Positions 5,752 to 44,983 of a stretch of 64,000 bases of DNA are shown one piece after another. A program made the position numbers and the translations under genes. Within the stretch, counting starts at the first letter, position 1; every line of letters begins with the position of its first letter. The notes under the pieces are model-generated. The model did not search any database. It was given only the letters and a program-made list of their open reading frames with translations, and was not told where the DNA came from. The stretch lies in the NCBI RefSeq assembly GCF_988243305.1, contig NZ_OZ547136.1. One strand, written 5' to 3'.

Positions 5752-7089
5752 ATGATGTATCGCATCAGAAATTGGTTGGTAGCGACGTTGCTGCTGCTGT
5801 GCGCGCCGGTGGGTGCCGCGACGCTCTCTGATATTCAGGTTTCTAACGGTAATCAACAGGCGCGGATAACGTTGAGTTTTATTGGCGATCCTGATTATGC
5901 GTTTAGCCATCAAAGCAAACGCACCGTGGCGCTCGATATCAAACAAACGGGCGTGATTCAGGGACTGCCATTGTTGTTCAGCGGTAATAATCTGGTGAAG
6001 GCGATTCGCTCCGGAACGCCTAAAGATGCACAAACGCTACGGCTGGTGGTCGATCTTACCGAAAACGGTAAAACCGAAGCGGTGAAGCGGCAGAATGGCA
6101 GCAATTACACTGTCGTCTTTACGATTAACGCCGATGTGCCGCCACCGCCTCCTCCGCCGCCTGTGGTTGCGAAACGCGTTGAAACGCCTGCGGTTGTCGC
6201 ACCGCGCGTCAGCGAACCGGCGCGCAATCCGTTTAAAACGGAAAGTAACCGCACTACAGGTGTTATCAGCAGTAATACGGTAACGCGTCCGGCAGCGCGC
6301 GCGACGGCTAACACTGGCGATAAAATTATCATCGCTATTGATGCAGGACACGGCGGTCAGGACCCTGGCGCTATCGGCCCCGGTGGTACGCGGGAGAAAA
6401 ATGTCACCATCGCCATCGCACGTAAATTGCGTACTTTGCTCAATGACGATCCGATGTTTAAAGGCGTTTTAACTCGTGACGGGGATTACTTTATTTCGGT
6501 GATGGGGCGCAGTGATGTGGCACGTAAGCAAAACGCTAATTTCCTCGTGTCGATTCACGCTGATGCCGCACCGAACCGCAGTGCGACTGGCGCTTCCGTA
6601 TGGGTGCTCTCTAACCGTCGCGCCAACAGCGAAATGGCCAGCTGGCTGGAACAGCATGAGAAACAGTCGGAGCTATTGGGCGGAGCGGGCGATGTGCTGG
6701 CGAACAGTCAGTCTGACCCCTATTTAAGCCAGGCGGTGCTGGATTTACAGTTCGGTCATTCCCAGCGGGTAGGGTATGATGTAGCGACCAGTATGATCAG
6801 CCAGTTGCAACGCATTGGCGAAATACATAAACGTCGACCAGAACACGCCAGCCTTGGCGTTCTGCGTTCGCCGGATATCCCATCAGTACTGGTCGAAACC
6901 GGTTTTATCAGCAACAACAGCGAAGAACGTTTGCTGGCGAGCGACGATTACCAACAACAGCTGGCAGAAGCCATTTACAAAGGCCTGCGTAATTATTTCC
7001 TTGCGCATCCGATGCAATCTGCGCCGCAGGGTGCAACGGCACAAACTGCCAGTACGGTGACGACGCCAGATCGCACGCTGCCAAACTAA
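5752..7089 (+). CDS. amiB: N-acetylmuramoyl-L-alanine amidase AmiB
   Basis: ORF 5737..7089; start ATG 5752 after RBS AAAGGTGG; signal peptide, AMIN domain, poly-Pro linker, amidase_3 domain. Confidence 0.92.
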
Positions 7090-44899: not shown

Positions 44900-44983
44900 A
44901 CATGTATTCCCGGTGAAAAAAGACAAAACCCCCGCACACCGGAAAGGTGGCGGGGGACTCACAGAGATAATATATGTCTGAAA

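Follow-up and report, generated by a model that had tools for sequence, protein, structure and literature searches.

An EF-P-dependent eight-proline run at the AMIN-linker junction of Escherichia coli AmiB: conservation in Enterobacteriaceae and in-frame length alleles

The amiB gene of Escherichia coli contains eight consecutive proline codons in the segment that joins its two domains, and the locus thus raises the question of what such a run costs in translation, how stable its length is, and why it is kept. The sequence analysed (the window) is a 64,000-nucleotide stretch of contig NZ_OZ547136.1 (assembly GCF_988243305.1), identified as E. coli chromosome with the genes queG, nnr, tsaE, amiB, mutL, miaA and hfq. 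A first-pass annotation, made from the nucleotide sequence alone, had placed the proline run in the amiB linker, between the AMIN and catalytic domains, and had suggested both a need for elongation factor EF-P and a tendency to vary in length by slippage.

Position of the proline run in amiB

The gene order in the window was tsaE-amiB-mutL-miaA-hfq, with amiB between tsaE and mutL (Table 1), and the start of this ORF is also the one that RefSeq gives amiB in 5,425 of 5,426 E. coli genomes. For most of these 5,425 genomes the region shared 97-100% identity with the annotated amiB, and in the 201-base stretch that surrounds the tract the K-12 records and the window differed by about one base (99.5% identity). 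The product is a cell-division amidase with an AMIN and an Amidase_3 domain. The AMIN family PF11741 matched residues 27-112 (20.8 bits, cut-off 20.5), and in the AlphaFold2 model, which was built on 48 homologs, strands between residues 24 and 127 formed a beta-sandwich (block pLDDT about 84-94), while the catalytic fold spanned residues 192-418. The only solved structure of E. coli AmiB, PDB 8C0J, matched with E = 5e-143 and covers residues 190-422, with the proline run outside. Between the domains lies a linker of about 63 residues, modelled without secondary structure at 128-191; the proline run itself was modelled as coil. Confidence was low here, with a mean block pLDDT near 58 over residues 131-140 and of 34-50 over the following residues 141-190. 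The predicted cleavage site of the putative signal peptide was placed from the sequence and from background on AmiB.

Table 1. Coordinates of amiB, its domains and the other proline-related features of the window.
Feature	Coordinates	Strand	AmiB residues	Basis or remark
amiB CDS, N-acetylmuramoyl-L-alanine amidase AmiB	5752-7089	+	445 aa + stop	ORF, translation, RefSeq annotation
Putative Sec-type signal peptide	5752-5817	+	1-22	Hydrophobic N-terminus, helix 2-15 predicted (AlphaFold2)
AMIN domain (septal peptidoglycan-binding)	5821-6132	+	about 24-127	Pfam PF11741 and AlphaFold2
Inter-domain linker	6133-6321	+	128-190	Proline run at N-terminal end; AlphaFold2
Eight proline codons, CCG CCA CCG CCT CCT CCG CCG CCT	6139-6162	+	P130-P137	Exact match, in frame
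Linker motif EPARNPFK	about 6214-6237		about 155-162	
Amidase_3 catalytic domain	6331-6990	+	194-413	Pfam PF01520, E = 2.8e-48
ORF of 104 aa	6037-6351	-		Spurious
Four-proline run	35167-35178	+		
Four-proline run	37249-37260	+		
Four-proline run	44945-44956	-		

The tract is real, and its sequence, CCGCCACCGCCTCCTCCGCCGCCT, occurs once in the window, on the + strand at 6139-6162. The first-pass annotation had set it at 6136-6159, where the codons are GTG followed by the first seven of the tract (one valine and seven prolines); the true position is three bases, or one codon, downstream. Its location between the AMIN and catalytic domains was confirmed, since Pfam, AlphaFold2 and RefSeq naming agree. 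More exactly, the run starts three residues past the last AMIN beta-strand, which ends at residue 127 in the AlphaFold2 model, and thus stands at the head of the linker. On the basis of the proline frequency of AmiB itself about 1e-7 runs of eight prolines would be expected, and the tract is far beyond chance. In the six frames of the window the next-longest proline run was four residues, a length reached at three sites (Table 1). The two four-proline runs of the + strand were in no + strand ORF of at least 150 aa, the convincing ORFs near them (RadC-like and similar) were on the - strand, and both are therefore probably not real polyproline motifs; the DNA there looks like a prophage or island. 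The minus-strand ORF opposite the tract was rejected as spurious, as it is entirely within amiB, its arginine run mirrors the CCN repeat, and it has no independent support.

The remainder of the linker is not uniformly free to vary, because the motif (E/Q)PARNPFK was nearly invariant across 80 Enterobacteriaceae species and the segment VVAKRVE.P right after the prolines was also well conserved. Other changes in linker length were encountered. In Escherichia whittamii (locus L014) a 10-residue tandem duplication, with VVAKRVEAPP as one copy, directly follows the eight prolines, so that the linker also changes length in frame in a second manner. The AmiB proteins P0008, P0009 and their relatives from E. 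coli, Shigella sonnei and Shigella flexneri (414-420 aa) retain the eight prolines and lack 25-31 linker residues, at alignment positions 158-182 or 152-182; P0008 is on 23 contigs. In the cryo-EM paper on FtsEX-EnvC-AmiB the linker is called flexible and was left unbuilt, and the word "proline" is absent from the text.

Translation of the run and EF-P

With eight in-frame CCN codons in a real gene, the tract contains the EF-P motif of at least three consecutive in-frame proline codons, and PPP ranks among the top stalling motifs (PMC11611912, Supplementary Data 3A). The run is a published one. Martens et al. 2015 named the eight proline codons of amiB the longest such run in E. coli and reported a "dramatic ribosome pause" for it, and in wild-type ribosome profiling a sharp footprint peak was found at amiB codons 130-138 (PMC4402525). 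Sieber et al. 2024 list six PPP motifs and one PPV motif of amiB (PMC11611912, Supplementary Data 3B), together with an asymmetry score, the ratio of ribosome occupancy upstream of a motif to that downstream. For amiB this score was 1.0-1.24 in the wild type and 1.0-2.9 in delta-efpL, against 6.7-10.5 in delta-efp; overproduction of EfpL in delta-efp gave 3.8-6.7.

The suggested need for EF-P is thereby upheld by published profiling of amiB itself, through the wild-type footprint peak (PMC4402525) and the rise in asymmetry on deletion of efp (PMC11611912). When EF-P is present the pause is local and, on balance, no ribosomes are lost along the tract; when it is absent, ribosome density 3' of the tract is about 7-10-fold lower than upstream, and most ribosomes fail to pass. 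This drop implies that AmiB synthesis would depend on EF-P. An amiB entry was not found in the supplements of Elgamal 2014, nor was a measurement of AmiB protein level in delta-efp found in the accessible literature.

The window run and that of E. coli K-12 (PMC4402525, PMC11611912) are the same gene, the same residues and the same eight codons, and nothing material differs between them. As in other EF-P-dependent XPPX or polyproline motifs, the prolines are in frame, and occupancy is increased in delta-efp and relieved by EF-P, partly by EfpL. Most EF-P targets have two or three prolines, whereas amiB has eight (PMC4402525), and no regulatory circuit is known to be tied to the amiB run. The AmiB eight-proline run, its pause and its EF-P dependence were accordingly already known, and the new part is the descriptive census of alleles given below.

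Length alleles in E. coli and conservation between species

The 201 bases around the tract were used as query and matched 5,425 of 5,426 complete E. coli genomes; rows were taken evenly down the ranking, and the search was repeated with each natural allele as query. The sizes of the allele classes in Table 2 are approximate, as they were counted from identity bands.

Table 2. Length alleles of the amiB proline tract among complete E. coli genomes.
Allele	Genomes	Lineages or strains
P8	about 83%	Most lineages
Six-codon class	about 15-16%; 860 genomes at least 95% identical to six-codon queries (may include some P7 alleles); 26 of 160 sampled rows	
PPSPPP (6 bp shorter, and CCG to TCG)	at least 711	ST131, NC101, other B2 strains
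Uninterrupted P6	at least 44	SCU-301 type
P7, O145:H28 haplotype	30	O145:H28 lineage
P7, AR_0369 haplotype	10	Scattered strains
P7 singleton	1	18SZHZ655Rt; tract codons resemble STEC313-type P8 allele minus one CCG
P5	19	Includes EPEC E2348/69
P11	1	EC42405

Every length change seen was a multiple of three bases and thus in frame, and several independent 3-bp deletions were present among the E. coli alleles. Seven-proline alleles occurred in at least 41 genomes and in three haplotypes. Between the P11 allele and the allele of R32_14_1F, its nearest P8 relative, the sole difference in 201 bases is a perfect 9-bp tandem duplication, and no P9 or P10 was present among the matches listed with the P11 allele as query. 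Synthetic seven- and nine-proline queries on the window haplotype returned no genome of at least 99% identity among the 5,425, these queries being too haplotype-specific; natural-allele queries did find P7 and P5 on other haplotypes.

The alleles tracked lineages, e.g. all 30 of 30 O145:H28-type genomes had one P7 allele, and the only singleton length alleles among the matches listed (5,425 genomes) were P11 and one P7. At most two identical codons are adjacent in the window allele. The tract, an imperfect repeat passed on clonally, is not a hypermutable locus. The expected slippage-prone variation in length is therefore real in that tracts of 5, 6, 7, 8 and 11 codons exist within E. coli, but it occurs only on an evolutionary scale, with clonal alleles and P8 in about 83% of genomes.

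Some single records stood apart in these searches. The tract of NZ_CP144930.1 (L002, "E. coli" SCPM-O-B-9504), with its flanks (60 nt), was identical to that of Escherichia albertii (L015), a P6 tract with the same codons, and in the 201-bp region this record shared just 87% identity with the window. Either the genome has been assigned to the wrong species, or its amiB came in through recombination. In NZ_CP010140.1 (E. coli strain D3, from dog) the match ended 11 bases short of the query end and the feature has no annotation beyond "AMIN domain-containing protein", which points to an interruption of amiB inside the linker. The amiB linker region had no match in one of the 5,426 complete E. 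coli genomes, and two extra copies were on plasmids.

Between species, the tract was compared in 80 species-representative genomes of Enterobacteriaceae, including Escherichia, Citrobacter, Salmonella, Enterobacter, Klebsiella, Raoultella and Kluyvera. A proline run directly followed FTI[NDK]AD[AVTE], the conserved end of AMIN, in all 80 species, and 77 of them had at least five uninterrupted prolines at this position, the other three having runs interrupted by S or T. The length of the first run was 5 in 11 species, 6 in 15, 7 in 13, 8 in 32, 9 in five and 10 in one, the mode thus being eight. Every codon began with CC, and the third positions differed in 62% of species pairs. With synonymous codons almost fully shuffled in this way, the constraint is on the amino acids and not on a DNA repeat. 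Likewise, no more than three identical codons stood in a row in the tracts of 75 of the 80 species, and the longest such stretch was 2-4 overall.

Codon usage in the tract was biased. The codon CCC made up 14 of 549 tract codons (2.6%) vs 160 of 1,734 other proline codons in the same genes (9.2%; Fisher p = 2e-8), and CCA was enriched within the tract (window and loci L011-L090). The avoidance of CCC may be an escape from homopolymers of five or more C, where frameshift mutation or ribosomal slippage readily occurs. Tract length and the length of the remaining linker showed no trade-off (Spearman 0.13, p = 0.25; 80 species).

Beyond the family the picture was different. Among 123 AmiB homologs with an identifiable catalytic motif (representatives from clustering at 50%), 108 had no run of at least three prolines upstream of that motif, and in the alignment homologs of at most 64% identity had unrelated sequence at the tract position. 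Judged from these alignments, the proline run is specific to the Enterobacteriaceae clade and is not a general AmiB feature.

Readings of the run

We hold with considerable confidence that the tract is a known polyproline segment at the AMIN-linker junction of AmiB, EF-P-dependent, conserved, and occasionally resized in frame, for which we infer a spacer role and resizing by slippage. Most likely the prolines would form a short, stiff polyproline-II spacer of about 8 x 3.1 Å, roughly 25 Å, that would keep the linker and the catalytic domain away from the peptidoglycan-bound AMIN domain, and EF-P dependence would be the price of this structure and not its purpose. Length shifts now and then by in-frame deletions or duplications of 3, 6 or 9 bp, for which misaligned CCN repeats or replication slippage are the most likely source, and the new length is then inherited clonally. 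As such a spacer would have it, the run between the two folded domains is conserved and uninterrupted in 77 of the 80 species in spite of shuffled codons. No paper was found that discusses the AmiB proline run as a structural element.

Several observations weigh against a strict form of the spacer. More distant AmiB orthologs (at most 68% identity) work without a proline run. Any length requirement must be loose, because E. coli tolerates 5-11 prolines and PPSPPP, and the missing trade-off between tract and linker length argues against strict selection on total span. Taken together with the linker deletions of 25-31 residues, this loose tolerance and the absence of the run in distant orthologs mean that any constraint is weak.

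The proline-rich region of TonB offers a partial analogy. It is a periplasmic region of (Glu-Pro)n and (Lys-Pro)n, i.e. of long alternating X-Pro repeats, and in TonB as in AmiB two functional modules of an envelope protein are set apart by a presumably extended, proline-rich segment. In AmiB, in contrast, the segment is an eight-residue homopolymer followed by a non-repetitive linker of about 50 residues.

A different purpose, selection of the run mainly as a translational brake, is in our view unlikely. A pause right behind AMIN would match the dosage of AmiB to growth state or EF-P activity, or would give time for targeting or export, and the proline structure as such would be of secondary importance. 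The strong EF-P-dependent asymmetry at amiB and the wild-type footprint peak fit it well. So does the enrichment of polyproline motifs -2 to +9 residues from domain ends in E. coli, which was interpreted as beneficial pausing (PMC5811046) and counts against the spacer reading, the amiB tract beginning three residues past AMIN. A brake leaves the length of the run unexplained, as a PPP triplet already suffices for a full stall, yet 5-10 prolines are kept; and with a wild-type asymmetry of about 1 (1.0-1.2) there is no net throttle on output as long as EF-P is present. A co-translational folding benefit is not obvious either, and this rationale is weakened because AmiB carries a signal peptide and its folding takes place after export, in the periplasm. 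The abundant B2 lineage, moreover, has PPSPPP and others have P5-P7, with no sign of compensation. For the first three of these reasons the spacer role is favoured over a role in pausing only.

It is likewise unlikely that the run is a selectively neutral low-complexity stretch of a disordered linker, made and resized by slippage and simply tolerated. Such neutrality would accommodate the range of 5-11 prolines within E. coli and 5-10 between species, the distant orthologs that lack the run, and the E. coli and Shigella variants without residues 152/158-182, which indicate a linker tolerant of large changes. A neutral run would, however, be broken quickly, since many non-synonymous changes could do so, and at least five prolines persist in nearly all of the species although third positions are near-saturated (62%); slippage alone cannot maintain a run whose DNA repeat is so imperfect (at most 2-4 identical codons in a row), and the specific avoidance of CCC points to selection on the tract.

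A regulatory reading is conceivable at the level of the gene cluster but is highly improbable. Here the tract would act as an EF-P-sensitive valve for amiB-mutL-miaA-hfq: at low EF-P, ribosomes would queue at codons 130-137, the downstream mRNA would be exposed to Rho, and read-through into mutL, miaA and hfq would be lowered, with the alleles P5, PPSPPP, P7, P8 and P11 setting the valve in each lineage. The facts in line with it are the gene order and the strong asymmetry in delta-efp only. Internal promoters for genes downstream of amiB, known from older operon studies, would blunt such an effect.

The tract shares with contingency loci a short tandem-like repeat in a coding region and length differences between strains, and it contains CCU-C contexts of a type reported as prone to +1 frameshifting, but a phase-variable repeat or a programmed frameshift site giving an alternative AmiB product is hardly credible, since the repeat is imperfect, its 3-base unit never shifts the frame, the variation is rare, clonal and bound to lineages, with just the two singletons among the matches listed, and no conserved alternative-frame product follows the tract in 81 sequences (80 species loci and the window), where the first stops came after 0-111 codons in the +1 frame and 2-37 codons in the -1 frame. 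The tract was accordingly rejected as a member of that class.

AmiB is one of three redundant septal amidases, and the finding is mostly confirmation of what was described for E. coli. The natural alleles would be convenient material for the effect of run length on EF-P dependence or on linker function.
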